From IMG/VR virus record IMGVR_UViG_3300006103_001171: 51,901 bases of DNA, one strand, 5' to 3'. Positions 13,829 through 51,901 of the stretch are shown piece by piece. A program made the translations under genes and the position numbers. The stretch comes from an uncultured virus (IMG/VR IMGVR_UViG_3300006103_001171) (taxonomy: Duplodnaviria > Heunggongvirae > Uroviricota > Caudoviricetes). Position 1 is the first letter of the stretch. The number at the start of each line of letters is the position of its first letter. The notes below the pieces were generated by a model. That model ran no database searches. It had not been told where the DNA came from and saw nothing but the letters and a program-made list of their open reading frames with translations.

Positions 13829-13833
13829 AGATT

Positions 13834-15755: not shown

Positions 15756-15812
15756 AATAAATTTGGTTAATAACTTTTTTACCCTTACATTTGCATAAAA
15801 TTTATAATAACT

Positions 15813-17320: not shown

Positions 17321-17374
17321 CTTATTTTTTATTTTTTTTTATCTATCGCTGATATTTATTAATAAAGATATTTT

Positions 17375-17749: not shown

Positions 17750-17878
17750 GCACAAGAAACCTTGAAACTTATAGACATACAAATAAAATCCTCACAAATT
17801 GTGGGGATTTTTCATTTTAACCTGCGAATATACGAAAAATACTTTAAATAAAAAAACCCCATTTCTGAGGTTTTAAAT

Positions 17879-18199
17879 TTATTCGGTTGGTTTAGTTGTA
17901 GTATCTGTTGTAGTATCGGTTTGTGTATCTGGTTTTGTAGTATCTGGAGCATTTTTAGTTAAGCCCTTTATACTAAATTTATCAACTGTATCGGCACCAA
18001 TACCCACTATTGCTAATAAAAGAACAGCATTAACAATAACATCTTCTAATTTTAGGTCTGATTTATAACAATTTATAAATAAAATAATACAAAGTGTTAA
18101 AGCGCAAATTAAACCAACAACTGGTTTAATTGAAGTTGAACCTCTTTCGTCACGAAATAAATCCTGCAACCAAGATATAAAACCCATTTTTTCTTTCAT
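17879..18199 (-). CDS. two-TM membrane protein, possibly holin-like
   Basis: two hydrophobic helices, Thr-rich tail, phage-type promoter. Confidence 0.55.
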   Translation of the reverse strand: MKEKMGFISWLQDLFRDERGSTSIKPVVGLICALTLCIILFINCYKSDLKLEDVIVNAVLLLAIVGIGADTVDKFSIKGLTKNAPDTTKPDTQTDTTTDTTTKPTE

Positions 18200-18271
18200 A
18201 TAACTAATTTAATAATAAATATCAAAGTATTTAAAAAAAACTTTTGGTAATTTGAAAACTATTCGTATATT

Positions 18272-19090: not shown

Positions 19091-19184
19091 AAAATAAATT
19101 TGTTTGTTTCGTTATTAAGTATTACATTTGCACTCTATTAATAAATATCACGAAAAAATAAAAAAGTTATCTAAAACAAATTTT

Positions 19185-19793
19185 ATGTTAGAGGAATTAG
19201 TAAAAAAAGAACTTGAGTTTGACTTAATCAAAGTTTTAAATGTGATTGAAAGTGATGAAGACCTTGATGAAATATTTAGGGATGGTAGATTTACCACACC
19301 ATATAATATGCTATATACTATGGCATCACAAAATGCTTTACCTGAGGAAATGCTTGAAAGAGCAACTGGTATCTTTGAACACATAATACTTAAAAATCAA
19401 AAGCCTAAAATGGCTTATTGTAAATTTTTAAGAGAAAAAACAAAAACTGAAGTTTTAGATACGGCTGTTATCAACGAACCATTAGTTGAATCCGTAGAAA
19501 CAACACCAGAAGAGACTTCAGAAGAAGAAGAAGACAAATCTAAATACAAGTTACCAAAGCATTATGGTAAAGAGCGTATCTTAAAGGACATTGAAGAAAA
19601 CAATGGTAAAACTGAGTTAGATACTGCGATGCTTGCTTTGAATGACTTTAGAAACATCTATGCAAAATTAAAGAATCGTTGCATTAAGGATAAACTTAGA
19701 GGTACAAGTATTCTAACTCAAGCTGATTGCAGGGATATTGTTGCTGTTCTTAGAATAGTTGAAAACAAATTGGGTCACATCGCAAAAAAATAA
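19185..19793 (+). CDS. hypothetical protein
   Basis: start MLEELV. Confidence 0.7.
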   Translation: MLEELVKKELEFDLIKVLNVIESDEDLDEIFRDGRFTTPYNMLYTMASQNALPEEMLERATGIFEHIILKNQKPKMAYCKFLREKTKTEVLDTAVINEPLVESVETTPEETSEEEEDKSKYKLPKHYGKERILKDIEENNGKTELDTAMLALNDFRNIYAKLKNRCIKDKLRGTSILTQADCRDIVAVLRIVENKLGHIAKK

Positions 19794-19795
19794 AT

Positions 19796-20131
19796 ATGGA
19801 ATTAGTCAAGGAATTATTCGATGTTTTTAGTCGTATCAGTGCTGAAACAAAAGTTAAAACAGCTGAGCATTCGGCGATTGATTCAGAACTTAGTCAATGT
19901 TATCACAAGATTGAAGGTATGAAATTAGACCATGTTGCTAAGTCACATAATGCCATCAAGGAACTACAAGATGTGCTTAGAAGACGTAGACGGATAAAAC
20001 ACGAAGCATCGACATTACAGATAATGCATACTAATCTAGCACCATCAATGCAAAATCTTAGTGATAAACTAAAAGCATCTAAAGCTAAGCAGGAAAAGCT
20101 GTTAACGGACCTAGAAAAAAATTCCTATTAA
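19796..20131 (+). CDS. hypothetical coiled-coil protein
   Basis: YHxIE...RRxIK motif. Confidence 0.7.
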   Translation: MELVKELFDVFSRISAETKVKTAEHSAIDSELSQCYHKIEGMKLDHVAKSHNAIKELQDVLRRRRRIKHEASTLQIMHTNLAPSMQNLSDKLKASKAKQEKLLTDLEKNSY

Positions 20132-27700: not shown

Positions 27701-29518
27701 ATGGGTAGTATTTTGAAAGTCAAGAATTTGACAACATTAGCAGAAGGTGTAATCGTATTCGTAGGATTGGCCGTAATTTTAACAGGTGTTTATTTCTTTG
27801 CGCCAGGTCTTCGAGTTTCGGGGTCAAAAGTCCTAAGTGGATTAAAGATTGGAAGTGAAAACATCGACAACGCTGGGGTAGCGGAGAAGATTAGTTTACC
27901 TTCAAAAGATGTATCAACAAAAGTAACAAGCAAGCCACTTAAGCGTATTGCTGAGTATGGTTGGAACGCAAACGCTGGTATGATTGTAGCAAATGGTGGT
28001 CCTCGTACAACTAAGGGTTCTATTTTAGAAGGTCTTGGTGAAAATATCGAAATCGTTAAGATTGACGGTGTATCAGATTTGCGTAACATGCAAGTAAGCT
28101 TTGTAGAAGAACTTAATTCAGGTAACGAAAATCCAGTAGGTGAAAAATCAGCGTTTGCTGTATCTATTATGGGTGATGGTGCCGTATTTTATGCAACCAC
28201 ACTTCAAGCAGAATTGGATAATAAATTTGGTAATGGTAAGTATCATGCACAAATAATTGGTGGTTATGGTTTATCATTTGGTGAGGATAAAGTTATCGGT
28301 CCAAGAATTTGGAAGGATAATCCTAAATCAATGGAAGGTGCTGTACTTAGTTCTGTAATCGGTGACGGTGACTGGGTTATTGCAATTAACTATTGCTTCG
28401 CAAACGGTTTAAAGGTTAATACAGATGCAACAACTTACGATGCACACGCCGTAAACTTTTTACCTAGTGAAAATGATGATTACATTAATTCTGTTAAGGA
28501 ACTTATTAAATCTCAAAAAAGTGGTTATACCGTATCATTGAAAGAAGTAGTTGATGGCAAATTGACAGGTAAAACTGTAAATAGAAAAATTGACGGTGCT
28601 ACTACATGGACCCCAGGTGACAAATTGGCATTCGAGAGTCTTTCTGGATTCACTGATGTAGTTTCTACTAGAGATTTCAATAACCAAATGTGTGCTGTAA
28701 TGGTAACCATTAAGGAATATGCGCTTAAGCATGACAAAGAAGTGTCGAACATACTTAAAGCGGCATATGAAGGTGGTAATCAAATCAAGACAAGTGATGA
28801 ATGGTTACATGCGGCTTCTGATGCGGTAGCTAAGACATACAACTTTGAAAATGGTAAGTACTGGTACGACATGTTTAAGGGTCAAAAAGGTACTAAAGAA
28901 GGTCTTGATTATAGTGTTGGTGGTAGTAAGGTGTTTAACTATGCTGATGCTTTGCAATACTTTGGTATCTCTGATGGTGTTAATCGTTATAAATCAGTAT
29001 ATGACCAAATCTCTAAATACTTAGTTGAGTTAAATCCATGTGATTTCAATAAGACATGTAAATCTGGTCCATTAGCTTATGATGATGCTGTTAATTTGTA
29101 CTTCTTGAAGTCTATTAATGATGTTCATACAGGTAAAAAGGATAGTGTTAGTTATGCTGAAAATAAGACAACTGTAATGGCTGATGGTAACTGGAAGATA
29201 AACTTTGCAACTGGTAGTTCAACTATTAGTGAATCATCTTCAAAGGACTTAGAAACAATTTACAACTTATTAATTCAAGCTGAAAATACTAAACTTAAGA
29301 TTATTGGCCACACCGATAATGTAGGAAATCCAGATGCTAATTTGACATTGTCTAAGGGTCGTGCAAATTCAGTAGCACAATACTTGAAAGATAAAGGGGT
29401 TCCATCTGAAAGGTTCCAATTAGTGGATGGTGCTGGTGATACACAACCTGTAGCTGATAATAGCACCGCTGCTGGTAAAAGTAAGAATCGCAGGACTGAA
29501 ATTCAATTATTAAAATAA
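27701..29518 (+). CDS. ABC substrate-binding (NitT/TauT-like) domain fused to OmpA C-terminal domain
   Basis: N-terminal TM; INFATGS, GHTDNVG..N..LS..RA, NRRTEI. Confidence 0.85.
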   Translation: MGSILKVKNLTTLAEGVIVFVGLAVILTGVYFFAPGLRVSGSKVLSGLKIGSENIDNAGVAEKISLPSKDVSTKVTSKPLKRIAEYGWNANAGMIVANGGPRTTKGSILEGLGENIEIVKIDGVSDLRNMQVSFVEELNSGNENPVGEKSAFAVSIMGDGAVFYATTLQAELDNKFGNGKYHAQIIGGYGLSFGEDKVIGPRIWKDNPKSMEGAVLSSVIGDGDWVIAINYCFANGLKVNTDATTYDAHAVNFLPSENDDYINSVKELIKSQKSGYTVSLKEVVDGKLTGKTVNRKIDGATTWTPGDKLAFESLSGFTDVVSTRDFNNQMCAVMVTIKEYALKHDKEVSNILKAAYEGGNQIKTSDEWLHAASDAVAKTYNFENGKYWYDMFKGQKGTKEGLDYSVGGSKVFNYADALQYFGISDGVNRYKSVYDQISKYLVELNPCDFNKTCKSGPLAYDDAVNLYFLKSINDVHTGKKDSVSYAENKTTVMADGNWKINFATGSSTISESSSKDLETIYNLLIQAENTKLKIIGHTDNVGNPDANLTLSKGRANSVAQYLKDKGVPSERFQLVDGAGDTQPVADNSTAAGKSKNRRTEIQLLK

Positions 29519-30846: not shown

Positions 30847-31620
30847 ATGAATAAAGTATTTAAGCCATTTGAGTTTATATCAGAAACCACAAAGCGAACT
30901 ATCATGCTTGGGTTTATCGGGTTAGTATTAGGGTTTTGGGTGGTAATGTCGGCAACATCAACAACTCATCTATTTCCCTCAGTTAAGCAAGTATTCGCAG
31001 GATTCTCAGACTTGTATGCTGATGGACTTGTGGTCCATGTATTTAGCTCATTAGGGCTGTTTTTAAAGGCTACACTCATCTCAATCATAGTTTCTCTCAT
31101 TCTTTGTTATTCTGCCCCAATTTCGGCTCTTAGACCCATAGCGGTATTTGTTTCTAAGCTAAGGTATTTACCATTAACAGGTATATCATTTTATATTGCA
31201 ATTTTGGTTCATGAAGCTAGGTCTGTTCAAGTCTGGATTCTAGTTGTGTTTATGACAACATTCCTCACAACTAGTCTTTTACAAATGCTTACTGATATTC
31301 CCGAAGAAGAATTAGACCATGCAAGAACACTTGGTTGCAGCCGATGGGAAATATTACTTGAGGTAGTTATAAAAGGTAGATTAGACTATGTATTTGAAAT
31401 GGTAAGACAAAATTTAGCTATGATTTGGATGCTTCTTGTATCAATTGAGAGTATACTTGCATCAGCTGGTGGTATCGGGTTTCTTATCAAAAATAATGAC
31501 AAGTTAGGTGATAACGGCAAAGTAATTGCTTTGCAAATTATCATAATAGCAATTGGTGTTTTTTTAGATTTCACATTAACAAAACTACGTAAATTAATCT
31601 TCAGATACTCAAATTTTTAA
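30847..31620 (+). CDS. ABC transporter permease (NitT/TauT family)
   Basis: multi-TM; EAA-like loop LDHARTLGCSRW; GGIG. Confidence 0.9.
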   Translation: MNKVFKPFEFISETTKRTIMLGFIGLVLGFWVVMSATSTTHLFPSVKQVFAGFSDLYADGLVVHVFSSLGLFLKATLISIIVSLILCYSAPISALRPIAVFVSKLRYLPLTGISFYIAILVHEARSVQVWILVVFMTTFLTTSLLQMLTDIPEEELDHARTLGCSRWEILLEVVIKGRLDYVFEMVRQNLAMIWMLLVSIESILASAGGIGFLIKNNDKLGDNGKVIALQIIIIAIGVFLDFTLTKLRKLIFRYSNF

Positions 31621-31622
31621 AA

Positions 31623-32462
31623 ATGAATTATACATCAACCGATACAATTTTATACCTTGATAAGGTTAGCGTGGGTTATAAAGATAAAAATGACCACAGC
31701 AAAGTAAATATGATACTTAAAGACGTATCATTGGAAGAAAAAGACATTCACCGTGAAGGTCATTCAGCTACTGGTCAAACAATAGCCTTTATTGGTCGTT
31801 CAGGTCGTGGTAAATCAACACTTTTTAAGGCCTTAACTGGTCTGTTGAAACCTACAAGTGGTAAAGTACTTATCATGGATGGTAACCCTAATATTCATAA
31901 TTCAGCTAAAGAAGTTGCTGAGGGCGATGTTGGATTTGTTGACCAGAAGTATACGCTTTTTCGTCATAAAACTCTCACCCAGATTCTACATTATGCGATG
32001 CGCAAGATAAACAAGACCAAACAAGAAAAGGATGCTATTATTGATAGTTATTTAGCTGATTGGGGTCTTGCTGAACATAAGGATAAGTACCCTTGTGAAC
32101 TATCAGGTGGTCAAAGGCAACGTACAGCGATACTTGAACAGATGCTTACATCTAAGCACTTTATCGTGTTGGATGAACCAGCATCGGGACTTGATGTTTA
32201 CGCAATCGAAAAGATGAAATCGTCATTTAATAAAATTTTATCTGATGATGAATTGAATACTATTATCTTTAGCACTCACGACATTAAATTAGCCGTTGAA
32301 ATGGCTGATAGTATTTATGTAATTGGTCGTCCAGAAGGTGTGGAATACAGTACTATTTTAAGACATTTTGATTTAAAACAAATGGGTATTGCTTGGCAAG
32401 AGTATGGAAATGCTCATAGACAATTAACTCAAGATATTAAAAGTTTATTACTTAATTCTTAA
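31623..32462 (+). CDS. ABC transporter ATPase
   Basis: GRSGRGKST, LSGGQ, VLDEP, STHD. Confidence 0.95.
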   Translation: MNYTSTDTILYLDKVSVGYKDKNDHSKVNMILKDVSLEEKDIHREGHSATGQTIAFIGRSGRGKSTLFKALTGLLKPTSGKVLIMDGNPNIHNSAKEVAEGDVGFVDQKYTLFRHKTLTQILHYAMRKINKTKQEKDAIIDSYLADWGLAEHKDKYPCELSGGQRQRTAILEQMLTSKHFIVLDEPASGLDVYAIEKMKSSFNKILSDDELNTIIFSTHDIKLAVEMADSIYVIGRPEGVEYSTILRHFDLKQMGIAWQEYGNAHRQLTQDIKSLLLNS

Positions 32463-34422: not shown

Positions 34423-34493
34423 GGTTCTATAGCTCAACGGCAGAGCTGGACTCTCTAAAAGTCTTGATGTTGGTTCGATTCCGACTAGAATCA
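34423..34493 (+). tRNA. amber suppressor tRNA (anticodon CTA)
   Basis: full cloverleaf; GGACT-CTCTAAA-AGTCT places CTA at 34455-34457; own promoter. Confidence 0.85.
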
Positions 34494-34541
34494 CACTTTA
34501 CATTTTTTAACAATTATTGTATATTTATAAAAAAAAGAAAT

Positions 34542-35870: not shown

Positions 35871-35959
35871 ATTAAAGGGAGAAGAAATTCTCCTTTTTTA
35901 TTTGGTAGTGTTAAGTAAATACCATATATTTGCATTTTATTAAACATAAAATTATACGC

Positions 35960-37930
35960 ATGAAAAATTTACTTACATTGATTTGCTTATTAGTAACATT
36001 TCAATTAATCGCACAAGACACAATTAAGTCAAAGACTCTAGAACCAATACAAATTACTTGTGTTAGGGCTGATAAGAAAATCCCAGTAACACAAAAAACG
36101 CTCTCCGATTCGGCTATTCAAGCGAATTATCAGGGTCAAGAAATACCTATGTTGTTAGGTTCTCAAACATCAATTTACACGAATTGTGATGGTGGTCATA
36201 ACGCTGGTTATAGTTACTTTAGCATCAGGGGTATTGACCAAACAAGAATAAACATAACTCTTAATGGTGTTCCATTGAATGAAGGTGAAGACATGGCTTG
36301 TTATACGTCTAATTATCCAAGTTTTACCAGCGCAATTCAATCTATGCAAATTCAACGTGGTGTGGGTACATCATCTAACGGCGCATCATCCTTCGGTGGC
36401 TCATTGAACTTTCAAAGCAAGGATGGCCTTATTAAGGGTACTGATATTCAAATAGGTGGTGGTTCATTTAATACATCAAGATTTGACATATCCACATCCA
36501 CAGGTTTATCCAAACACAAATTAGCCTTATTCGCTAATATTGGTGGTATACAAACTGATGGCTTTAGAGATAATTCAGGTTGTAAGGGTGGTTCCGCTTT
36601 TGTGAGTCTTGGTTACTTCGGGAAGTCTAGTATTACAAAACTTAACCTATTAACAGGAATATCACAAAACAAACAAGCTTGGATGGGTTCAAGTGATTCA
36701 GCATTAGCAGCTAATTATCGTGATAACCCAAGAGGTGGTGATAATATGGATAATTTCAATCAAACGAATGTTCAATTGCAGAACATAACAATGTTTAATA
36801 CACGGTTTAAATTAACCAGCACTGCGTTTTATAATTACTTAGATGGTCACTATAATGTGTTTAACTTAAAGGATATACCAGTTAATAATTATTTTGCATA
36901 CGAAAGCCAGTATTCACGATGGATTGGTGCGGTAACTCAATTAGATTATAACTATGGTGATTTTAAGGTTACTTCAAGCCTTTCAGCCAGTACTTATACG
37001 AGGTTCCATAATGGTTATGAGATTTACGATACAACACTTACTGAATATCCCTATACTAATAGTGGTAAAAAGAATGATGCAAATGCATTCATAAAGTTTA
37101 GTTATGACACTAAAAGAGTCTTGTATTATATCGACTTACAAGAAAGATTTGTTGATTATAAGTACTCTGGTGATACAAGTGTTTATCAAAGCTGGAAGTT
37201 CTTTAACCCAAAGGCTGGTGTTAAGTTCTTCATAAACAAGAGTTTGGATGTGTATTGGAGCGTAGGTTTATCTCATAGAGAACCAACACACTCAATAATG
37301 CTTAATGGTTGGTTGTACTTAAACTCTTATAATCCGATTACAATAGTTAAGCCTGAGGAAGTAATTGATAATGAAATAGGTGTAAATTACACGTCAAGTA
37401 AACTAAAATTACAAGCTAATGTTTATGTAATGAAATTTACGAATGAAATGATAGCTGCTGGGCCGATGGGTAATAACAGTCTTCCTATTATGATGAATGT
37501 TCCTAATAGTCTAAGATATGGCTTCGAATTTGATTGTACTTATAAAGTAAATAAGTCGTTTACTTATGATATTAATTCAACATTATCTAATGGTCAGTTT
37601 AAAGTTGATAGCGGTACGTATAGCTACTTATTTAATCCAAATTTTATGTTTAAGCATTCGATTAACTATACACATAATAAGTTATTTGTAAGCCTTAATC
37701 AAGCATATATTTCAAGAGTTTACATTGATAAGGCTAATCAATTTACTTTGCCAATATCATCTACAATCGGTTTGAATCTTGGATATACCTTTGGTCGTTA
37801 TCAAGTATCAATTCAGGGTAACAATTTAACAGGTGAGAAGACTTATAGCAATGGTTCAGTTACTGGTGTTAGGTATAGAATACCTAACGCTTTACAAAAT
37901 TACTTCATAACCCTTAAAATACACTTATGA
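35960..37930 (+). CDS. TonB-dependent receptor
   Basis: signal peptide, plug SIRG..TRINITLNGVPLN, QIQRG..GG, barrel strands. Confidence 0.9.
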   Translation: MKNLLTLICLLVTFQLIAQDTIKSKTLEPIQITCVRADKKIPVTQKTLSDSAIQANYQGQEIPMLLGSQTSIYTNCDGGHNAGYSYFSIRGIDQTRINITLNGVPLNEGEDMACYTSNYPSFTSAIQSMQIQRGVGTSSNGASSFGGSLNFQSKDGLIKGTDIQIGGGSFNTSRFDISTSTGLSKHKLALFANIGGIQTDGFRDNSGCKGGSAFVSLGYFGKSSITKLNLLTGISQNKQAWMGSSDSALAANYRDNPRGGDNMDNFNQTNVQLQNITMFNTRFKLTSTAFYNYLDGHYNVFNLKDIPVNNYFAYESQYSRWIGAVTQLDYNYGDFKVTSSLSASTYTRFHNGYEIYDTTLTEYPYTNSGKKNDANAFIKFSYDTKRVLYYIDLQERFVDYKYSGDTSVYQSWKFFNPKAGVKFFINKSLDVYWSVGLSHREPTHSIMLNGWLYLNSYNPITIVKPEEVIDNEIGVNYTSSKLKLQANVYVMKFTNEMIAAGPMGNNSLPIMMNVPNSLRYGFEFDCTYKVNKSFTYDINSTLSNGQFKVDSGTYSYLFNPNFMFKHSINYTHNKLFVSLNQAYISRVYIDKANQFTLPISSTIGLNLGYTFGRYQVSIQGNNLTGEKTYSNGSVTGVRYRIPNALQNYFITLKIHL

Positions 37931-39443: not shown

Positions 39444-40771
39444 CATTTAAATAACAATTAAATCGTTATTTATTTGATTACGGACATTATTGTTCATAAT
39501 CACACTAGTGTAATCCAGTGGCTTTGTCATTGAAGCAAGGTGATTGTCGTAATATCTTTTCATTATGTTGATAGCTGAGTTTAAATCTCTATCTATTTCG
39601 ACATTATCACTTAGTTTAACAGTTCTATCCTTTAACTCAACTTTATCTTTAAATAGCTTACCAGTAAGACTATTCAATTGAGTGGTGTATTTTTCATCAA
39701 TCTTAATTAAATCACATTGTTTATTTTGTGACTTATACTTAAGAAATTCTAAGAACATATTAATATTAGATTCATTAAATGATTTTCTAATACCCTTTTT
39801 ATTCTTATTTACTCCTTCTGTTGACATAAGGGTTTTTACTGTTAAATCGCCAACTACAATTGTTTTGTAGTTCATATTCACTAATTTTTTACTCTGAATA
39901 TGTAGAGTTTGTTTAATTTGACTATTCTTCTTATTATATAGTTTTCTTTTAACTTTATTTAATTTATTAAAGGATTTACTATTCTTTTGTTTTTTGCTTA
40001 ACTTAGACTTAATCTTATTAATCTGTTTACCGAAGTACTGATTAATCCTCTTTGATTTATTTTTAAGAATAACAACGGTACCATTGTTATCCACACCAGT
40101 ACCTAAATTCTTTAGACCTAAATCAATAGCGAGTACTCTTGATTTAATTATTAAATCATCTGAGTAGTTTATTTTATCATCGACAACAATATCACAAAGC
40201 CACTTATTATTAATAAATTTGACTCTAATTTCTTTAATATTTAATTCAGATAAGTTTGTTAAATGACTTGAATATTTAAAATTAATTTTATTTATTGAAA
40301 TTATACTATTTTCTTTGAATATCCAACCATTTAGGTTAAAAACTAATGTATGATACTTTCCGAGTTCTTTTGTCTTTGGTGGTCTAGCTGTATTATCTTT
40401 TTTAATAAGTGTGAAGAAAGATTGGTATGATTGAAATATTTCAGCTGCCACAACTTGTGCTGCTTTTGCATTAAATTGTTTCCAAGATTCCTTGGTTGAA
40501 TATTTCAATGGTGGAATGAGGTTAATTAAATCAAACTTTGAGTATACCTTTTTAGTTGATTCATAGTGTTTTTGCTGAATATCAATAAGAGTGTTCCAAA
40601 TATCCATACGAATATCAGACAACTGTTTTAGTTGAGATACCTGTTCTGTTGTTGGGTGTAACCTTATTGAGTATGTTTTCATTTAATATATAATTAACTT
40701 TATTCTCTGTTATATATTATAAATATCAGGTAAAAATAAAAAAGACAATAAATTTCGAAAAAAGTTGGGAT
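39429..40771. mobile_element. TnpB cassette with 13-bp direct repeat AAAAAGTTGGGAT, no transposase
   Basis: repeat at 39429-39441 and 40759-40771. Confidence 0.75.
39447..40682 (-). CDS. tnpB: TnpB-family RNA-guided nuclease, rearranged RuvC, no Zn finger
   Basis: KTYSIRLHPT; AIDLG; VVGDL; IDEKYTTQ; DRDLNSAINI. Confidence 0.88.
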   Translation of the reverse strand: MKTYSIRLHPTTEQVSQLKQLSDIRMDIWNTLIDIQQKHYESTKKVYSKFDLINLIPPLKYSTKESWKQFNAKAAQVVAAEIFQSYQSFFTLIKKDNTARPPKTKELGKYHTLVFNLNGWIFKENSIISINKINFKYSSHLTNLSELNIKEIRVKFINNKWLCDIVVDDKINYSDDLIIKSRVLAIDLGLKNLGTGVDNNGTVVILKNKSKRINQYFGKQINKIKSKLSKKQKNSKSFNKLNKVKRKLYNKKNSQIKQTLHIQSKKLVNMNYKTIVVGDLTVKTLMSTEGVNKNKKGIRKSFNESNINMFLEFLKYKSQNKQCDLIKIDEKYTTQLNSLTGKLFKDKVELKDRTVKLSDNVEIDRDLNSAINIMKRYYDNHLASMTKPLDYTSVIMNNNVRNQINNDLIVI

Positions 40772-43833: not shown

Positions 43834-44058
43834 ATGAAGACAATCACGTTAGAACCGAGTACTAACACTCACACAATGACAGATGTTTTGGAATCAACAG
43901 CAATTGATACAAGCATCCTTAAGTTAAAAACAAACAAAAAGAGCAAGGTGGTTCACGGCGAACACGGCACTTTGGGTATCGAAAGCGAACACGTAATCAA
44001 ATACGTTCAGCAAGAACTTAACCCGATTACCAAGAAGTTGCAAAACGCTTGGGACTAA
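43834..44058 (+). CDS. hypothetical protein
   Basis: HGEH motif; own promoter and terminator. Confidence 0.7.
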   Translation: MKTITLEPSTNTHTMTDVLESTAIDTSILKLKTNKKSKVVHGEHGTLGIESEHVIKYVQQELNPITKKLQNAWD

Positions 44059-44184
44059 AAAATTTAGAAAAGAGAAAGCCAAAAACTTTCTCTTTTTTAT
44101 TTTAAAAAAAAATTTGTTCGTTTCAAAAAAAGCTGTATATTTGCATTCTAAATAATTTATTAATAATTAAAAAAAAAAAAGACA

Positions 44185-44943
44185 ATGAAATTAATTTGGA
44201 GAGAGTTTAATTTTAATTCAGTTTATTACGACACTGAAAAAAAAGAAATGGTTAGTTGTACAACAGCTGAATTTCTTAGGTACTTAAAGGGTGTTTATAC
44301 CAATAAGGAGCGATTCATTAATCGTTTCATTGATAGGCACAAAGCAACAATGGTAGAATATGACTTGAAGGGTCATAGTGAGCCAGATTACAATATCTGC
44401 ATTGAGTTCTTTGATAAGTTGGTAGCTGATTACGATGCTGCGAAACCATTCACTTTCAAGGAATCATTCGAGTTGGAAAACAAAGAGTTTCAAGCATTGG
44501 TATTCTCTTCAATTGATATTACCGATATGATTTCTCAATTGGGTGCTAAGAGAATTAAGACTGATGGTATTGAGTTGGACCAAAATATCTATGATGATGA
44601 TGGTAACCTTCTTGGTAAAGAAAAGAGGTCTAATATCTACGAGGTTCACGAAGTTGATGGTGAGAAATTGGGCTTGGAAGAAAAGTTGTATGTTGTTAAG
44701 TGCTGGTGTACAACAACAGATAAGGAACATTGGTTGTGGATTGATGATAAATACAAAGACGACCCATTAACAGCGATTGCCTCAACGTTCATGGTGCACG
44801 AAAATGTTATCCCACATATTAAGTGCTTAAAAAGACAAGGTGATGTTCTTTTGGCTGAAATGACTAAGGAAGTTACACCTGAGGGTGAGATTGTTTCTTT
44901 GACAAAAGACCAATACTTCTCTTTGTTAGCAGCACAAGCTTAA
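44185..44943 (+). CDS. hypothetical protein
   Basis: VKCWCTTT..H..W; RQGD motifs. Confidence 0.75.
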   Translation: MKLIWREFNFNSVYYDTEKKEMVSCTTAEFLRYLKGVYTNKERFINRFIDRHKATMVEYDLKGHSEPDYNICIEFFDKLVADYDAAKPFTFKESFELENKEFQALVFSSIDITDMISQLGAKRIKTDGIELDQNIYDDDGNLLGKEKRSNIYEVHEVDGEKLGLEEKLYVVKCWCTTTDKEHWLWIDDKYKDDPLTAIASTFMVHENVIPHIKCLKRQGDVLLAEMTKEVTPEGEIVSLTKDQYFSLLAAQA

Positions 44944-44999
44944 AGTTTATTTTTTAATTTATAAAGGAGAGGGCAACCTCTCTTTTTTATTATAACTAT

Positions 45000-45308
45000 A
45001 TGAATCAATTAAACGAAAAAAGTCAACCACATGGCTTATGGGTTGAATATTATAAAGACGGTAAAATACGTAGTGAGCATAATTGGTTAAATAGTGACCG
45101 ACATGGTGTTTGTAAGGACTATCATGAAAATGGTGTCCTGTTTATTGATGCTGTGTATAAAAATGGCAAAAGAGTTACTTGGTCTAGATATTTCGAAAAT
45201 GGTAGTCTAGAAGTCTTTGAGCTTTATGATAAAATGGGTTTATGTTATATGAAATTTTTTAATCACAGTGGTGATATAAACCAACGTTTTCATCGTTTTT
45301 TACTTTAA
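45000..45308 (+). CDS. MORN-variant repeat protein
   Basis: HG.W.EYYKDG / HG..KDYHENG repeats. Confidence 0.75.
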   Translation: MNQLNEKSQPHGLWVEYYKDGKIRSEHNWLNSDRHGVCKDYHENGVLFIDAVYKNGKRVTWSRYFENGSLEVFELYDKMGLCYMKFFNHSGDINQRFHRFLL

Positions 45309-45343
45309 CATTATTTGCATATATTTATTAGAAAAATAAATAT

Positions 45344-45694
45344 ATGGCAAAATATCTTGTAATTTTTAGTGATAATCACGGTGAAGAATTTGATGTTAAT
45401 GGCTTTAGACTTATGACTGAAAAAGAAGCTGATAAGTTTGAGGATTTAGCGAATAACATTAATTTTGAATTTCATTATTACGCAAACTCAGAGTCTTTAT
45501 CTTATTCAAATGGTGAAGACTTCTTATCCAGAATTGAATTTAAGCAAGTATCTAACGAAGAGTACGAAAAACTTGATAAGTTATTTGGTGGTCAATTTGG
45601 AATCTTTATTGGTGAAGAGTACTTAAATATGGTTCTTAAAGGTGAATCAGATGATAACGATGAAGAAAACGATGATTATAATGACAATTGGTGA
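45344..45694 (+). CDS. acidic hypothetical protein
   Basis: phage-type promoter. Confidence 0.65.
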   Translation: MAKYLVIFSDNHGEEFDVNGFRLMTEKEADKFEDLANNINFEFHYYANSESLSYSNGEDFLSRIEFKQVSNEEYEKLDKLFGGQFGIFIGEEYLNMVLKGESDDNDEENDDYNDNW

Positions 45695-45763
45695 AAAACT
45701 TTAAAAAAGATTTGTCTAATTCAAAATAACCACGTATATTTGCACTTCAAATAGCTAATAAAG

Positions 45764-47056
45764 ATGAAGTGTATTAAAACAAGGAAAATTCAGTTGTTGC
45801 CATTAGGTGATTTTAATGAAACCTACAAATACGTTAATAATTTAAGTTCAGGCTTAGCGTCACTCGGTAATGAAATGATAAGGAGACATGTTTTATCATT
45901 TTATGAAATGGACGTACTAAAAGATTCAACTCCAGATGCTAAAACTAGAACTAATCTAATGAAGGAAAAATACGGAATGTCACTCCAAAATATGGGTTAT
46001 GATGTTTCAAAAAAGTATTCAGCCACAATTCCTTCGAATATTCGCACAACATTTAATCAAAAGGTCTTTAAAAAAATAAAAGACAGTTATTTTGGTATTT
46101 CAATAAATAAAGAATCTATACCATCATTCAGAAAAGACTCAATGGCAATTCCATTTAGTTATGATAATAATATCAGTTTGAACGAATTTGGGGTGTATGA
46201 TTTTAAATTCTTTAATAATGTCAATTTTAAATTAAACTTTGGACGTGATAGGTCTAATAATAAAGTTATCATTGACAGAATTTTATCTAATGAATATAAG
46301 CCATTATCTTCACATATAAAAATTGATAAGAAAAAAATATTCTTAGATTTAACATATTCTTTTGACTCAGATGAAAATGTTAACATATCTAAAGATAAAA
46401 TTGTTGGTGTTGATTTAGGTATAAATAGACCTATGACAATTGCTAGGGAAGATGGTACTTATGCAAAACAAATAGAAATCGGTGGTAAGATTCAATACTC
46501 TAGATTATCAATTCAAAAACAAAGAAGAAGCTTACAAAGTGCTTTAAGGCATTCATCTGGTGGTCATGGTACTGGTAAAAAAATAGCTAAATTAAAATCA
46601 TTAAAAGATTATGAACATAATTTCATGAAAACCACTAATGATACACTAAGTCGTGAATTAATAAAATATTGCGTTAATGAAGGTGTTGGTGTAATTAAAT
46701 TAGAAAATCTAACTGGTATAACAGAAAATGCTAATAATTTTCTTAAGTCTTGGTCTTATTATCAATTACAACAAATGATTGAGTATAAAGCTGCTGAATT
46801 TGGAATTACAGTATTATATGTTAATCCTAGATATACCTCTCAAACTTGTCCAACTTGTGGCAATATTGATAAAACTCAAAGAGATTCAAAGGATAAAACA
46901 AAATTTGCTTGTTCAAATGAAATTTGTTCTGATATTAATATAAATAAAGATGCTGATATTATTGGTGCCTTTAATATCTCAAAAAGAGATGGTGTTATCG
47001 CTTCTAAAAAAATATTACAAGAAAAAAGTGATAAAAAGTTGTTAGTTTCAGAATAA
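45764..47056 (+). CDS. compact type V effector, Cas12f-like (430 aa)
   Basis: RuvC-I GVDLG, RuvC-II KLENL, YTSQTCPTC Zn finger, RuvC-III DADIIGAFNI; adjacent to CRISPR array. Confidence 0.85.
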   Translation: MKCIKTRKIQLLPLGDFNETYKYVNNLSSGLASLGNEMIRRHVLSFYEMDVLKDSTPDAKTRTNLMKEKYGMSLQNMGYDVSKKYSATIPSNIRTTFNQKVFKKIKDSYFGISINKESIPSFRKDSMAIPFSYDNNISLNEFGVYDFKFFNNVNFKLNFGRDRSNNKVIIDRILSNEYKPLSSHIKIDKKKIFLDLTYSFDSDENVNISKDKIVGVDLGINRPMTIAREDGTYAKQIEIGGKIQYSRLSIQKQRRSLQSALRHSSGGHGTGKKIAKLKSLKDYEHNFMKTTNDTLSRELIKYCVNEGVGVIKLENLTGITENANNFLKSWSYYQLQQMIEYKAAEFGITVLYVNPRYTSQTCPTCGNIDKTQRDSKDKTKFACSNEICSDININKDADIIGAFNISKRDGVIASKKILQEKSDKKLLVSE

Positions 47057-47074
47057 GTTCGTATATTTGCATAA

Positions 47075-47240
47075 ATAAAAAAAGTTCTTTTACATATTGA
47101 GCCTAACGGCTGGGCTGGTTGTTCAGCCTTAAGGTGAATCCACGAATAAACGTGGTGATACTCTAGAGTATTGGAGGAAACTCACTCACCAAATACCTTT
47201 AAATATAGGGTTTATAATGTCGTTAATGGTATAAACAATT
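47075..47240 (+). ncRNA. putative tracrRNA (ends approximate)
   Basis: promoter TATATTTG 47062-47069; anti-repeat ATACCTTT-AAATATAGGGT 47193-47211; hairpin loop GTTGTT 47118-47123 complementary to repeat 3' end AACAAC. Confidence 0.75.
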
Positions 47241-47257
47241 AAGAAATGCGCTATTCA

Positions 47258-47886
47258 GGTGTTAATGACCCTAATTTGAAAGGTATAAACAACTAACGCT
47301 TGCAATGCAGTTCAGGTAGTGTTGGTGTTAATGACCCTAATTTGAAAGGTATAAACAACAGTATTATATAATTGTTGTTGCATTTGATGGTGTTAATGAC
47401 CCTAATTTGAAAGGTATAAACAACAGAGGTGTTCTAGCTTGACTTCACTAATATGGTGTTAATGACCCTAATTTGAAAGGTATAAACAACGGACTGGCAT
47501 CGTTAATGGTTGCTGGTCACGGTGTTAATGACCCTAATTTGAAAGGTATAAACAACAAAACTTTAATAGACCACTCTTAGGGTCTAGGTGTTAATAACCC
47601 TAATTTGAAAGGTATAAACAACCATAATATTATTTTTAATTCACCGCAATGTGGTGTTAATGACCCTAATTTGAAAGGTATAAACAACGGGTTGAGTTAA
47701 CTGGTCTGTTATTGTCATGGTGTTAATGACCCTAATTTGAAAGGTATAAACAACGAAACTGAACGTTTACTAAAAGACAAAGAAGGTGTTAATGACCCTA
47801 ATTTGAAAGGTATAAACAACGAGACTGAACATTTACTAAAAGACAAGGAAGGTGTTAATGACCCTAATTTGAAAGGTATAAACAAC
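47258..47886 (+). CRISPR. CRISPR array: 10 x 36-nt repeat GGTGTTAATGACCCTAATTTGAAAGGTATAAACAAC, 9 spacers (eight 30 nt, one 29 nt)
   Basis: repeats start at 47258, 47324, 47389, 47455, 47521, 47587 (one G>A change), 47653, 47719, 47785, 47851. Confidence 0.98.
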
Positions 47887-47937
47887 TTCGTCACTCAGGT
47901 ACGTATTTAATTTTTTTTAAAGTTTTTAGTGAAAAAA

Positions 47938-48016
47938 CTTGACAATTCAAAATAAGTTTGTATATTTGCATTGTAATTAAAAAATTTTACACTTTTTAAA
48001 AAAGTGACATATTTAT
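47938..48016 (+). promoter_or_regulatory. tandem host-type (TATATTTG 47961-47968) and phage-type (ATATTTAT 48009-48016) promoters for tRNA array 2
   Basis: shares AAAAAACTTGACAATTCAAAA with the array-1 promoter. Confidence 0.75.
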
Positions 48017-48047
48017 AACAAAAGGGAAACCCATAAACAAAAAGATA

Positions 48048-48131
48048 ATGATAAACGTTAACAACATATTTAATTTTAATTTTGAAGCAGCTGAGGCAGA
48101 TTTTAGCCATCAGAGGGTTGAGGTATTGTAG
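48048..48131 (+). CDS. leader peptide MINVNNIFNFNFEAAEADFSHQRVEVL (putative attenuator of tRNA array 2)
   Basis: hand translation; Ile/Asn/Phe/Glu/Ala/Asp-rich; followed by terminator. Confidence 0.8.
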   Translation: MINVNNIFNFNFEAAEADFSHQRVEVL

Positions 48132-48160
48132 TTAACGAATCGAAAGAAACATATTAAACG

Positions 48161-48191
48161 AAAGCCCTTAACCAAAAGTTAAGGGTTTTTT
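48161..48191 (+). terminator. intrinsic terminator / attenuator hairpin before tRNA array 2
   Basis: GCCCTTAAC-CAAAA-GTTAAGGGT then T-tract; 48116-48123 GGTTGAGG can pair with 5' arm. Confidence 0.85.
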
Positions 48192-48200
48192 ATTTATATT

Positions 48201-48271
48201 CGAGGTGTAGTTTAGTGGTAAAATGCCGCACTGTCTATGCGGTGTCACGATTTCGATTATCGTCATCTCGG
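48201..48271 (+). tRNA. tRNA-Asp(GTC)
   Basis: CCGCA-CTGTCTA-TGCGG; G73. Confidence 0.85.
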
Positions 48272-48273
48272 CA

Positions 48274-48358
48274 CGGAAAAAATTCCTAGGGATAGGAACT
48301 ATCTTGATAAAGATAAGTACTGCACGAATCATAATAAGTTCGAATCTTAATTTTCCGC
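48274..48358 (+). tRNA. degenerate/atypical tRNA-Ile(GAT)-like
   Basis: acceptor CGGAAAA/TTTTCCG; TATCT-TGATAA-AGATA (6-nt loop); TTCGAAT. Confidence 0.45.
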
Positions 48359-48398
48359 AACGGAGAATCACAACTCTAAAAAAAATGTGAAACTGGAG

Positions 48399-48471
48399 GG
48401 GGGGTCATGTACCAAGGCTGGCGAGAAATACTTGCAATATTTCTGGAAGATTTCAATTATCTTACTCTCCA
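48399..48471 (+). tRNA. tRNA-Ala(TGC)
   Basis: AAATA-CTTGCAA-TATTT; G3:U70 and A73. Confidence 0.8.
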
Positions 48472-48534
48472 CAGGTGTCACTGATATACTGACCGAGCAT
48501 GGGGATTAGTAATAATCCCTAGTATATCTAATAA

Positions 48535-48609
48535 GGTGCCGTAGCTGAGATGGTTTAGCGGTTGGTTGAAGCCCAGCGACTTACAAGGGTTCGATTCCCT
48601 TCGGTACCA
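48535..48609 (+). tRNA. tRNA-Phe(GAA)
   Basis: GTTGG-TTGAAGC-CCAGC; acceptor GGTGCCG/CGGTACC. Confidence 0.85.
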
Positions 48610-48666
48610 GATAGTCAATGTTAATCCACCTGCACGTTGGTGATTATCGCACACTAGGAATAGTGA

Positions 48667-49060
48667 CTAAGTGATTAACAAAGTTCTTTGATTTATGATA
48701 TTAGCAATAATATCAAGAAATTTTTTAGATGTATTTATTTTGAATTTTTGTTGAAATGATGTATCAATAATACATAAATCAATTTTATTTTCAATACATG
48801 ATTTAAATTTATTCTGGTCATTTATTTGTGTCTGGTTTAATTTATTAATACCGAAAATCGGTTCATAATGAAATATTCCATTCAATTCAAATGCTAAATT
48901 AAGTGACGGAATGTAGATGTCTAATTCAGAACCGATTGCATCCTTCTTATTATAGTCTATTTGTAGATTAGGGTAAAGAATTGTTAATTGTTCTTCAAGA
49001 TATATTTCGAGTTTAGAGCGTCTTGTGCCAGTTGTTTTATGTTTATTATAATTGTGAGTA
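48667..49060 (-). pseudogene. C-terminal remnant of PD-(D/E)XK/Vsr-like homing endonuclease
   Basis: SKLE...ELDIYIPSLNLAFELNGIFHY; no plausible start before it runs into tRNA-Glu antisense. Confidence 0.65.
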
Positions 49061-49074
49061 AATTGAATAAAAAT

Positions 49075-49160
49075 GCTATGGTCGACTAGTGGCTCAGGTC
49101 GCATCCCTTTCAAGGATGTGGGGAGAAATCCCCTCACGGGTTCGAATCCCGTCCATAGTA
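49075..49160 (+). tRNA. tRNA-Glu(TTC) with long variable arm
   Basis: CATCC-CTTTCAA-GGATG; variable hairpin GGGA-GAAA-TCCC. Confidence 0.85.
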
Positions 49161-49482
49161 CAAATGTTTTAGTTATGATTAAGCGAACAATTAGTGGTAG
49201 TTTTACTAATATGGTAAAACCTGACCCAAGTGTTATGAAAGATAGTGATTTTGATTTGTTATCGTTCTGATAGAACACTGGTTGTATTCACAATATGTAA
49301 GAGCGCATATACCAATTGCTGCTTTATGGGACAGAAAAGTTGAGGGGAAAGTTCGATTCTTTCGAAGGACACATTATTAACAAGTTAAAAAAAATGAGCG
49401 CAATGAAACAGCTGGACGCAATGTCACCAATCAGATAAGAGAAGAAAGAAAGGTTCTGATTGGTACGAGACAAACACGAAAA

Positions 49483-49875
49483 TTGAAGAAATATTCTGAT
49501 AACTTCAATACAATTTTTACTTTCTTTCTAAAGTCTTATAGGAGTGGTATATTAACATTTAGTGGTGTTGATGTTCCTGTTCATTATGACATAAATGGTC
49601 CTGAGGGTAAATTCACATTCCGAAAATTTGAGAATGGTGATTACGTTAAGGACATTATTACTTCATGTCACCCAAATATTATTAAGGGTGTAATAATTGC
49701 AAAAAAAAGTTGGGGGTTACACATAAAATTATGGAGCGAAGGTATTGCTGATTGGTGCTTTACCGAAGAAGAAATCCTGAAGCAATTCAGCGATAAGGGT
49801 ATTCTTATTCCTGAACCTCTTTTAAACGACTTCAAGAATCACGTAAATAAGGCTAAACAAAAAAGATATGAATAA
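49483..49875 (+). CDS. hypothetical protein (start uncertain)
   Basis: 130-aa ORF, TTG start. Confidence 0.6.
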   Translation: MKKYSDNFNTIFTFFLKSYRSGILTFSGVDVPVHYDINGPEGKFTFRKFENGDYVKDIITSCHPNIIKGVIIAKKSWGLHIKLWSEGIADWCFTEEEILKQFSDKGILIPEPLLNDFKNHVNKAKQKRYE

Positions 49876-49926
49876 TATTTGGTAATATCAAATAAAATCG
49901 TATATTTGCACTCTAAATTATAACAC

Positions 49927-50172
49927 ATGAAATTAATACACATTGTTGAAACGATTGATGAAAAAGTATCATCAATATTGTCTTTTCCTGTTAAGGATGA
50001 ATCAAAAGAAAAAGAAGTTGAAGAAGAAGTAAACGCTAAGTTTATTGAACTTATCAATCAATTTCAGTACCCAGCAACACTATCAGAGGATAGTGAAAAG
50101 CACTGGATACAACAAAAAATCTATCATCATAAAAATCATCTTCGTTTAGAAATCTCTTCATCACAAATATAA
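49927..50172 (+). CDS. hypothetical protein
   Basis: ORF after promoter. Confidence 0.6.
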   Translation: MKLIHIVETIDEKVSSILSFPVKDESKEKEVEEEVNAKFIELINQFQYPATLSEDSEKHWIQQKIYHHKNHLRLEISSSQI

Positions 50173-50182
50173 ATTATAAAAT

Positions 50183-50746
50183 ATGATACATACAATTGCC
50201 CATTTATTAGGTATTAAACTTGAAGGTTCTGAGTGTTCCGCCGAGATTGAAAAGAAAGTTGTTGAACAACTGGAGAAAGTTCCTTACATTCAATACCCGA
50301 CAGCTTTCCATACGGTAGACATCATTGCTACTCGTCAAGGTGAATCTGGTTTTGAATTGCTATTAGGTCGTAAACACAAATCCACTGAATGGGTTTTCAT
50401 TGGTGGTTTTGTTGAACCAAAACAAACAGCTGAAAGTGCTGCCTTGCGTGAATTACACGAAAAAACTAATATCCTTATCGAGAATGAATCAAGACTGGTT
50501 TATTTAGGTTCTCATTTCATTGATGATGCAAGATACAAGGATTCTTGTCATAAGATTTCAACCAGCCTATTTACAATTCAATTAACCGATGAAGAAGCTG
50601 CGCAAGCTAAAGGTGGTGACGATATTTCAGAAACCAAATGGCTTAAATTGGGTGAAATTGAAGTTAACTTAAAAGAACATCATAGAGTTTTGCTTTATAA
50701 GTTTTTAATTAGTACTTCAAAATGGCATCATTCACATAATCTTTAA
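50183..50746 (+). CDS. Nudix hydrolase, ADP-ribose pyrophosphatase-like
   Basis: TVD, GGFVE...AALRELHEKT, DDAR, GGDD. Confidence 0.8.
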   Translation: MIHTIAHLLGIKLEGSECSAEIEKKVVEQLEKVPYIQYPTAFHTVDIIATRQGESGFELLLGRKHKSTEWVFIGGFVEPKQTAESAALRELHEKTNILIENESRLVYLGSHFIDDARYKDSCHKISTSLFTIQLTDEEAAQAKGGDDISETKWLKLGEIEVNLKEHHRVLLYKFLISTSKWHHSHNL

Positions 50747-50804
50747 AAAAAAGATTTGTTAGTTCCAAATTAATTCGTATATTTGTATTCTAAAAAAAAA
50801 AATT

Positions 50805-51320
50805 ATGAACCCTGTTTGGCATTCTGAGTCATCCGTTAGACACTTTGGTGGAAAATTAGAGGATTATTTAAAAATTCATGAAAAAATGGATTGTCATAAA
50901 GCATATGTTTCTGATAATCGTGCGAGAGTACTTACACATACAATGTTTTGGGTTATCGAAGTTATGATACCAATATTTGGTTCGTATATAACCCTTGAAA
51001 GTGGTAGAAAAGTCTCTGTAAAGGATATATGTGAGCGACACATCCTAGAGGACTTTAAGATGAAATTTATCCCAACGCCACAAGATTTCATCCAAGAAAT
51101 GGACTTCAAGTCTTGGATGCAAAATGGTAACGGTGTTTGTCCATCGGCTGCAAAGCTTTATAAGGAATTAGTTCCAGAAGAAATTAAATCTGAGGAAGTT
51201 AAGCCTGAGAAACCTGAGATTAGAGTAGGTCGGCCATTTAGACCACTTCCAATGATTTTGGATGGTACTAAGCGTAATCGTGGTGGTCGTAGTGGTTATG
51301 AAAGTAAAATTTTAGATTAA
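50805..51320 (+). CDS. DUF6915-like phage protein
   Basis: MNP..HS.SS...FGG..EDY..IH..MD...ERHI.ED. Confidence 0.75.
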   Translation: MNPVWHSESSVRHFGGKLEDYLKIHEKMDCHKAYVSDNRARVLTHTMFWVIEVMIPIFGSYITLESGRKVSVKDICERHILEDFKMKFIPTPQDFIQEMDFKSWMQNGNGVCPSAAKLYKELVPEEIKSEEVKPEKPEIRVGRPFRPLPMILDGTKRNRGGRSGYESKILD

Positions 51321-51321
51321 T

Positions 51322-51630
51322 ATGACAATAAAAGAAAGATTCTCACCAGAGAACACGGAAGCCAAGCTCAGGGCTAAAATTGAGAAAAAATTCGGCAAAG
51401 AACACAATATCAAAACGGCTATCTTCAAGGCTGTTAGTGAGTACAATGACGAATACGATAACTACAACCCAATTCTTATCTTAATTGATAAGGACTTTAA
51501 TGAGGTTGACCATAACATTCAAGTTTTGGATTTATGTCCCGATATGGAAGACCAAGGTATTTTCGATGAAGAAAATAATTACGATTCATGGGAAACGTTA
51601 TCAGTTGAGGATTTAACCATTAAATTTTAA
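51322..51630 (+). CDS. acidic hypothetical protein
   Basis: 102-aa ORF. Confidence 0.65.
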   Translation: MTIKERFSPENTEAKLRAKIEKKFGKEHNIKTAIFKAVSEYNDEYDNYNPILILIDKDFNEVDHNIQVLDLCPDMEDQGIFDEENNYDSWETLSVEDLTIKF

Positions 51631-51901
51631 TAAACATTTAACTCCATTTACTTTTTTTGTGTTTATTGTATATTTATAGTACATCAATTTACAATGGATG
51701 AATTAGTTAAAAAATTTATAGGGGATAAATATAGGACTACTATTGACTTTGTATCTGTTATAGAATACCCAACATTAATTAATTATTCAAATTGGTAATT
51801 ATGACCCCCACCTCTATCTACACCTTCATCGCAAAGCGTGACGGGATACCAACTAGCGAGGCACTGATGCAAATGCAATTAGACCGCTATAAAAGATTAA
51901 T

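Follow-up and report, generated by a model that had tools for sequence, protein, structure and literature searches.

Does the small RuvC nuclease gene that is followed by a repeat array at positions 45735–47886 of IMG/VR virus record IMGVR_UViG_3300006103_001171 belong to a CRISPR system that works, and is that system the property of a phage, a host cell or a transposon? We analyzed the whole 51,901-nucleotide (nt) stretch (the window), in which an initial annotation had described a phage-encoded, Cas12f-like locus. Very likely, a phage of ~343 kb that infects Bacteroidota (probably Flavobacteriaceae) carries here a functional CRISPR-Cas12f system of type V-F1, which it turns on competing mobile DNA, with smaller tailed phages as at least some of the targets. 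In its parts, the locus is a complete type V-F1 Cas12f cassette on a huge phage, and apparently an active one.

The cas12f gene (45764–47056, plus strand) encodes a protein of 430 residues. Pfam recognizes in it the zinc-ribbon domain Cas12f1-like_TNB (6e-19) as well as OrfB_IS605 (3e-9), and the RuvC triad D217/E314/D398 together with the zinc-ribbon cysteines C362, C365, C383 and C388 is invariant in an alignment of 41 homologues, which bears out the 430-residue nuclease with three catalytic acidic residues and a Zn finger proposed initially. The PADLOC profiles Cas12f (1.6e-89) and Cas12u3 (6.7e-89) both match from end to end, and these matches place the protein in type V-F1, which we take to be the former V-U3. 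Among proteins of known structure, the best matches by sequence are Al3Cas12f (PDB 9NZO/9NZR; 1e-51), AsCas12f (5e-42) and CnCas12f (4e-36), with SpCas12f1, OsCas12f and RhCas12f also among the nearest, and the TnpB of ISDra2 follows at 2e-3. The best profile matches, in PADLOC as in the PDB, are to Cas12f and not to transposon TnpB. The predicted fold agrees with this order: an AlphaFold model of the protein (predicted local distance difference test score 85.7) superposes over its whole length on Al3Cas12f and AsCas12f with template modeling (TM) scores of 0.76–0.80 at ~28% identity, against 0.52–0.59 for TnpB structures.

The CRISPR array (47258–47886, plus strand) starts 201 nt after the stop codon of cas12f. 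Its 10 repeats are each 36 nt long and enclose nine spacers, of which eight measure 30 nt and one 29 nt, so that unique guides follow one another at a spacing of 65–66 nt. Nine of the 10 repeats are identical and the repeat at 47587 differs by one base, in agreement with the nearly homogeneous array described initially. With a simple array finder, periodic arrays of the same 65–66-nt spacing were found adjoining nearly all relatives with long matches; they share the layout of the window, adjacent to the gene and on the same strand, and every repeat has the orientation of the gene and the 3′ ending ..ACAAC or ..CCAAC. Spacers 8 and 9 (47755–47784 and 47821–47850, plus strand) are variants of one sequence with three differences, set among identical repeats, one between the two spacers and one on either side. 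Two of the three differences fall at third codon positions of an open plus-strand frame, which fits two alleles of one coding target, with three sites being too few for proof; the pair arose either by capture of two alleles of one target or by duplication of a unit and later divergence. One relative, a 246-kb IMG/VR contig (L022), has two arrays with related but different repeats, at 4710–4970 upstream and 6504–6968 downstream of its cas12f.

Relatives have an equivalent of the 201-nt gap that separates gene and array, and it is in this gap that a trans-activating CRISPR RNA (tracrRNA) can be placed (47078–47226, plus strand; the core, 47111–47203, is taken from a covariance model, and the ends are inferred). 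The model, R1, was built with the window excluded from 14 other Cas12f loci, largely of Alistipes and other Bacteroidales. On the window it matches 47111–47203 of the plus strand with 48.5 bits (E 5.8e-9), and the next best site reaches 15.9 bits (E 0.15). Over 100 loci, R1 gave 54 matches in 52 loci (its 14 training rows included), all on the gene's strand, and there was no match in the array-less TnpB-type loci among these 100. In two loci (L024 and L028) the array lies upstream of the gene, and there the R1 match lies upstream of the array, indicating that the conserved unit is tracrRNA followed by array. A search of positions 44000–51901 against Rfam returned tRNAs only.

Two parts of this RNA would contact the repeat. 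The anti-repeat (47192–47222, plus strand), which has a conserved position among relatives, forms an imperfect duplex with repeat positions 1 to ~30 (−21.1 kcal/mol). Near the 5′ end of the core, the hairpin GGGCTG-GTTGTT-CAGCCT (47112–47129, plus strand) carries a loop complementary to AACAAC, the last six bases of every repeat, as in a pseudoknot. RNAalifold, applied to 16 aligned gaps, gave 11 consensus pairs, seven of them with compensatory changes, comprising a hairpin with a GUUGNN loop and a long-range stem. The loop hexamer pairs at all six positions with the last six bases of its own repeat in 14 of 18 loci, or in 15 if the hairpin of L084 is taken from the alignment, and five loop/repeat-end combinations occur: GUUGUU/AACAAC (the window), GUUGUA/UACAAC, GUUGUG/CACAAC, GUUGGA/UCCAAC and GUUGCA/UGCAAC. 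The covariation thus supports two docking sites of the tracrRNA on each repeat, the anti-repeat with the 5′ and middle part and the loop with the repeat end, a double contact of the kind seen in solved Cas12f guide RNAs. The intergenic tracr-like RNA of the initial annotation therefore stands, on the plus strand between gene and array, on the strength of the R1 match and of the covariation between loop and repeat end.

Both the gene and the RNAs are preceded by promoters of one type. The cas12f promoter (45712–45744, plus strand) has a TTG box at 45712 and a TAnnTTTG-type −7 box within CGTATATTTGCA at 45733–45744, 20 nt 5′ of the ATG; we take TAnnTTTG to be the −7 box of Bacteroidota promoters. 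With at most one mismatch, this 12-nt sequence occurs at 22 sites in the window where 0.26 would be expected, 21 of them on the plus strand (for example at 608, 2336, 33631, 43785, 45733, 47060 and 49899), with one copy 3′ of the array. It is embedded in a conserved stretch of ~60 nt with an upstream TTG and lies 5′ of most plus-strand genes and tRNA clusters. The claim that cas12f has its own host-type promoter is borne out. The second promoter (47039–47071, plus strand) overlaps the cas12f stop codon and places its copy of the motif, at 47060, ahead of the RNA genes; in related loci, a TAnnTTTG box occupies the matching place at the gene end ahead of the RNA. This second promoter would drive the tracrRNA and probably the array as well. 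From 47071 to 48160 there are no terminator-like sites, and a single transcript spanning tracrRNA and array is likely.

Together, these parts suggest how the system would operate. The Bacteroidota-type promoter would drive cas12f, and on the same strand the stop-codon promoter faces the tracrRNA and, behind it, the array. By analogy with solved relatives, a host RNase would trim the RNA, and a Cas12f dimer would load one pair of tracrRNA and CRISPR RNA (crRNA), read a short 5′ protospacer-adjacent motif (PAM) and unwind the target, of which both strands would be cut by a single RuvC site (D217/E314/D398).

What the guides are aimed at is indicated by two spacers. Parts of the locus are carried by 24 freshwater or lake metagenome runs, four of which were compared with it, and metagenomes were scanned with three spacers for exact matches only. 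Exact matches to spacer 3 (47425–47454, plus strand) were present on contigs in two runs and an exact match to spacer 6 (47623–47652, plus strand) on a contig of a third, all with foreign flanks that are unlike the array, and the target contigs of both spacers co-occur with the phage in freshwater runs. The scan with spacer 3 recovered the phage's own contig (L157) and a contig of 3,254 nt (L158) in which a 30/30 protospacer lies at 1757–1786, inside a gene for a protein of 609 residues. In one of the runs, spacer 2 had a gapped match over part of its length, which was rejected as too weak.

The 609-residue protein has more than 590 homologues, including named genes in Flavobacterium and Lutibacter genomes, and many lie on contigs of 30–50 kb, some with HNH/NUMOD4 inserts. 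An alignment search placed the family on 14 IMG/VR contigs of ~30–46 kb; a search of IMG/VR with the single protein gave none. Of three family contigs that were scanned, two (L169 and L167) encode a large terminase, a portal and a virion structural protein, and L169 a small terminase in addition. These genes make it most likely that spacer 3 is directed at a smaller tailed phage with hosts in the same group. As for the protein itself, Pfam and PDB profile searches for a function were empty, the one weak PHROG match is to a family of unknown function and the Atlas clusters are unnamed; it had no match among GenBank phages and occurred in none of 201 genomes of the family to which genome G034 belongs.

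Where new spacers would come from is a separate matter. Cas1, Cas2 and Cas4 families were absent from the 69 window open reading frames (ORFs) scanned, out of 76 called, as the initial annotation had stated for the window. The corresponding Pfam families were likewise found in none of five records (the 60.5-kb sister record G001 and the related G012, G013, G014 and G007), which include three complete or near-complete phage genomes, and were detected in 6–8 of 14 control genomes. Ten Bacteroidales chromosomal loci of the same branch also have gene and array among housekeeping genes without cas1, cas2 or cas4 in their 67 flanking proteins, and the greater Cas12f branch has been described as associated with arrays only, these lying downstream of the gene (PMC10691335). 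The description of the system as minimal and without adaptation genes is thus borne out for the stretches searched, but this state is the norm for the whole Cas12f branch, in cells as in phages. Since the branch does without Cas1, Cas2 and Cas4, the phage itself is presumably not the source of new spacers.

Could the system be real but unable to cut? It might be a binding or repressing guide system, resembling a catalytically dead Cas12f (dCas12f), or a decaying relic with a frozen array. Such cases are on record, namely a phage Cas14 that is missing a catalytic residue and is aimed at a host gene (PMC7162821) and inactivated branches of Cas12f (PMC10691335); moreover, a lack of adaptation genes, and the presence of the spacer-3 target and the phage in the same runs, would suit this explanation. 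It has to contend with an intact catalytic triad and zinc ribbon that are invariant across the homologues, with nine identical repeats out of 10, with covarying contacts between tracrRNA and repeat that have been kept, and with two spacers that have exact 30-nt matches in present-day DNA. On this evidence, we regard a non-cutting system as distinctly unlikely.

The contig bearing the identical protein (L157) is 343,332 bp long. A second IMG/VR record (G001, 60.5 kb) matches window positions 1–20000 at 100% identity and has 73% of the sampled words of the window in common. CheckV puts the completeness of this record at 17%, which implies a genome of ~350 kb; judged by its length, the record would stop near position ~38,600 of the window, about 1 kb before a second TnpB-like gene. 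Relatives of 288 kb (G013) and 365 kb (G014) have terminal repeats and are rated complete. The window and 22 kb upstream of it encode 11 tRNAs, SmpB, RNase R, YqeY, PTH2, a CCA-adding enzyme and sigma-70, next to content of phage type: many homing endonucleases, a match to phrog_1745 at 5e-152, and many other PHROG hits. Homing/HNH endonuclease ORFs split the genes for DNA ligase (phrog_114) and RNA ligase (phrog_548), at 6095–8588 and 9200–11567 of L165 (positions 1–20000 of G001). From these data, the locus appears to be located on a phage genome larger than 200 kb, and the phage setting of the initial annotation is upheld by the virus record, the long contig and the gene content alike.

If the replicon were a plasmid or belonged to a Bacteroidota chromosome, with the locus as an ordinary host defence, this would account for the absence of capsid, portal and terminase genes from the 74 kb examined, for the cell-like genes in the window (TonB-receptor plug, OmpA, ABC transporter, sigma-70), for the nearest "cellular" relative, L078, which lies on a 248-kb contig of a Flavobacteriaceae metagenome-assembled genome (MAG), and for the Bacteroidales relatives that sit among housekeeping genes. 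Such a replicon is difficult to reconcile with an IMG/VR virus record and the genome size estimated by CheckV, with a clade otherwise made up of viral contigs, of which two have terminal repeats and count as complete, with ligase genes split by homing endonucleases and the many PHROG hits, or with a set of tRNAs, SmpB, RNase R and CCA-adding enzyme like that of published huge phages (PMC7162821). We therefore consider a non-phage replicon highly unlikely.

Several other features of the window were recorded. Endonuclease VII/HNH ORFs lie on the minus strand at 12835, 16651, 29556, 32459 and 48667. The cell-envelope-type genes (a TonB-dependent receptor plug, an OmpA-domain protein, and an ABC transporter permease and ATPase) are at 35930–37930, 27701–29518 and 30847–32462. 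A tRNA at 34423–34494 (plus strand), labeled Pyl by ARAGORN, has the anticodon CTA, which reads TAG, and the stop codons of 72 called ORFs are TAA in 63, TGA in five and TAG in four; this tRNA could be an amber suppressor for the recoding of late genes, as is known of some phages of Bacteroidota. Inside a minus-strand ORF without a family match (18272–19090), positions 18890–19080 form a tandem repeat with a unit of 45/90 nt (4.2 or 2.1 copies).

The relation of the protein to Cas12f and to TnpB was examined on 58 viral and 79 genome loci of relatives. Rows were dropped if they were shorter than 330 residues or interrupted by stop codons, as were exact duplicates and 22 near-identical loci, and a quick IQ-TREE search was then run on 100 proteins with support from the Shimodaira–Hasegawa approximate likelihood-ratio test (SH-aLRT) only. 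The window protein falls in a clade of 66 rows (SH-aLRT 98) that contains 48 of the 49 array-linked rows of the tree; an array lies within 1.5 kb in 48 of the 65 other rows of this clade and in one of 33 outside it. Within the clade it belongs to a group of nine (SH-aLRT 99), made up in addition of seven rows from viral contigs and the one Flavobacteriaceae MAG contig (L078), and its sister is L025, at 51% identity. A closer relative, 83% identical, is on a contig of 40.7 kb (P0002). The same array finder found zero arrays in the Bacillaceae and archaeal-type TnpB-like clades. A grouping with insertion-sequence TnpB, named beforehand in the initial annotation as part of what would refute its reading, was not seen; the protein groups instead with array-linked proteins.

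A transposon-borne TnpB with an omega RNA, the repeats being no CRISPR array, is extremely improbable: the Pfam OrfB_IS605 match, an NCBIfam guided_TnpB score of 172 bits against a cut-off of 100 and a second TnpB-like gene 5 kb upstream favor it, but the regular 65–66-nt spacing with unique spacers, the separate tracrRNA with its own promoter, the position in the tree among array-linked proteins, the absence of a TnpA nearby and the low identity of the second TnpB-like protein (25% over 218 residues) argue against it. Membership in the IS200/IS605 TnpB family was rejected on similar grounds, in that there is no adjoining transposase and no second copy in the window, and the guides come from an array of nine spacers; the NCBIfam IS200_TnpB model scores 42 bits where its cut-off is 425. 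The second TnpB-like gene (39447–40682, minus strand; 411 residues; NCBIfam guided_TnpB 152 bits) encodes an HTH_OrfB_IS605 N terminus, has none of the CxxC zinc-ribbon cysteines and reads G-D (VVGDL) at the position of the RuvC-II glutamate. No TnpA gene lies beside it, and it may be a nuclease-altered or repressor-type TnpB.

A number of observations nevertheless weigh against a working, phage-borne Cas12f system. The energy of the anti-repeat duplex is unexceptional, since at least 12 of 10,226 other 60-nt windows reach −22.1 to −23.5 kcal/mol; the tracrRNA call accordingly rests on homology and covariation and not on energy. NCBIfam files the protein under the broad guided_TnpB subfamily only, and its Cas12f2 model gives 86 bits with a cut-off of 450. 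Transcript ends, processing and crRNA loading are all inferred, and none of the 24 locus-bearing metagenome runs is recorded as RNA. The structural genes absent from the 74 kb count here as well, and the searches for cas1, cas2, cas4 and self-targets covered these 74 kb of the ~343-kb genome.

The spacers contribute further points of this kind. The 5′ flanks of the two targets, ..AAATG for spacer 3 and ..GTTA for spacer 6, share only T at −2 and a purine at −1; two flanks are too few to define a PAM, and the T-rich PAM of relatives is not established for this system. Coexistence of the spacer-3 target with the phage could reflect escape. Seven of the nine spacers are without a match. Spacers 3, 6 and 8/9 (the last two searched as one IUPAC pattern) are absent from IMG/VR, the whole array found nothing beyond chance among GenBank phages (best E 0.6), and all spacers together found nothing beyond chance in 1.35 Mb of relatives' loci or elsewhere in the window. 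When 401 genomes from the order that includes G034 were searched with the array, 33 gave single weak matches, and none of the four inspected lay in an array; from the E-values about four such matches are expected, so the observed number is inflated by composition, and the matches were treated as due to chance. Against 33 related viral and MAG records, similarity was from repeat to repeat only.

What is least ordinary about the locus is that the tracrRNA passes at its end into a first repeat of reduced length, after which comes an 18-nt sequence. This degenerate repeat (47219–47239, plus strand) stands directly 3′ of the anti-repeat, has lost the middle 15 nt and keeps only the bases that contact the tracrRNA, with the tail GTATAAACAAT; the pseudo-spacer of 18 nt occupies 47240–47257. 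A repeat tail after the anti-repeat occurs in four of 16 loci, all of them viral, and in the viral relatives L025, L017 and L029 the tail is followed by 28–30 nt. It is conceivable, though rather unlikely, that tracrRNA, shortened repeat and 18-mer fold in cis into a natural single-guide RNA beside the normal array, perhaps with a regulatory target. If real, such a unit would correspond to the stage with a half repeat next to the tracrRNA that has been proposed on a path from Cas12f back to an omega RNA (Altae-Tran et al., 2023). No target of the 18-mer was found, the one 10-nt seed match being at a tRNA promoter, with ~0.1 such matches expected by chance, and outside the CRISPR locus the repeat tail occurs at chance level, leaving dispersed units of promoter plus tail unsupported.

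The nearest characterized enzymes to the window protein are the Cas12f-MG119/Al3Cas12f family. Al3Cas12f itself (Cas12f-MG119-28, from a contig assigned to Alistipes; PMC13186708) is the best match by sequence, with a fold E-value of 1.4e-27 and a TM score of 0.76, and like the window system it comes from a Bacteroidota background and depends on a tracrRNA for its guide. The Bacteroidales branch compared with it also has the array 3′ of the gene with no cas1, cas2 or cas4 alongside, as in the window. The differences are the Foldseek identity of ~28%, the location of the window system on a phage, and the protein length, 430 residues in the window against 433–488 for four new representatives that include Al3Cas12f (PMC13186708). 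For Al3Cas12f, activity, a T-rich PAM and an obligate dimer have been measured, and guide RNAs of 129–156 nt with T-rich PAMs are described for the family (PMC13186708).

Other known systems resemble it in fewer respects. AsCas12f1 of Acidibacillus sulfuroxidans (422 residues; PDB 7WJU, 8J12 and 8DZJ) is of similar size, matches at 5e-42 and superposes over the whole length with TM scores of 0.78–0.80, but it comes from a Firmicute chromosome, and the guide RNA of the window could not be aligned to its guide RNA with the tools used. We presume that AsCas12f1 belongs to the same V-F1 (former V-U3) group, its own sequence having been outside our profile scan; its PAM is NTTR. ISDra2 TnpB (IS200/IS605; PDB 8EXA/8H1J) shares the RuvC and zinc-ribbon core, is of the type ancestral to Cas12f and has its omega RNA gene downstream; the window protein matches it at 2e-3 and a TM score of 0.52–0.59, and the window locus has no transposon ends or TnpA and takes its guides from an array and a separate tracrRNA. 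CasPhi (Cas12j), of ~750 residues, is not known to need a tracrRNA and matches the window protein weakly (E ~1e-3). On the huge Biggiephages it is likewise a compact type V effector without adaptation genes (PMC7162821).

Compact type V systems on huge phages, which the initial annotation had described as weapons against competing elements, are in fact published for type V-F itself. Type V-F/Cas14 variants of huge phages have been reported with compact arrays, conserved catalytic residues and spacers against other phages, and almost all phage CRISPR systems are described there as devoid of Cas1, Cas2 and Cas4 (Al-Shayeb et al., 2020; PMC7162821). The window system shares with these variants the huge phage, the compact array, the conserved catalytic residues, phage-directed spacers and the absence of detected Cas1, Cas2 and Cas4; it differs in being on a different phage, from freshwater and with Bacteroidota-type promoters. 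Cas12f-like proteins have also been reported in huge phages of soil and the mouth (PMC11748809; PMC12297358). A search of the literature, with papers' supplements and trees outside its range, found no description of this particular phage.

Since phage-borne type V-F systems without adaptation genes were reported in 2020, the window system adds an example and not a new kind, and knowledge of phage Cas12f systems as a kind is left unchanged by it. As the initial annotation anticipated, all RNA parts can be identified: the tracrRNA, both of its contacts with the repeat and the array are readable from the sequence. What results is a fully parsed natural Cas12f of 430 residues, with its gene, two promoters, tracrRNA, array and at least one natural target. 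Because its guide RNA can be rebuilt from the sequence, it is a ready candidate for screens of PAM and of activity, alongside AsCas12f and Al3Cas12f. For the biology of huge phages, the system supports the picture that they use miniature CRISPR systems against smaller phages sharing their host.

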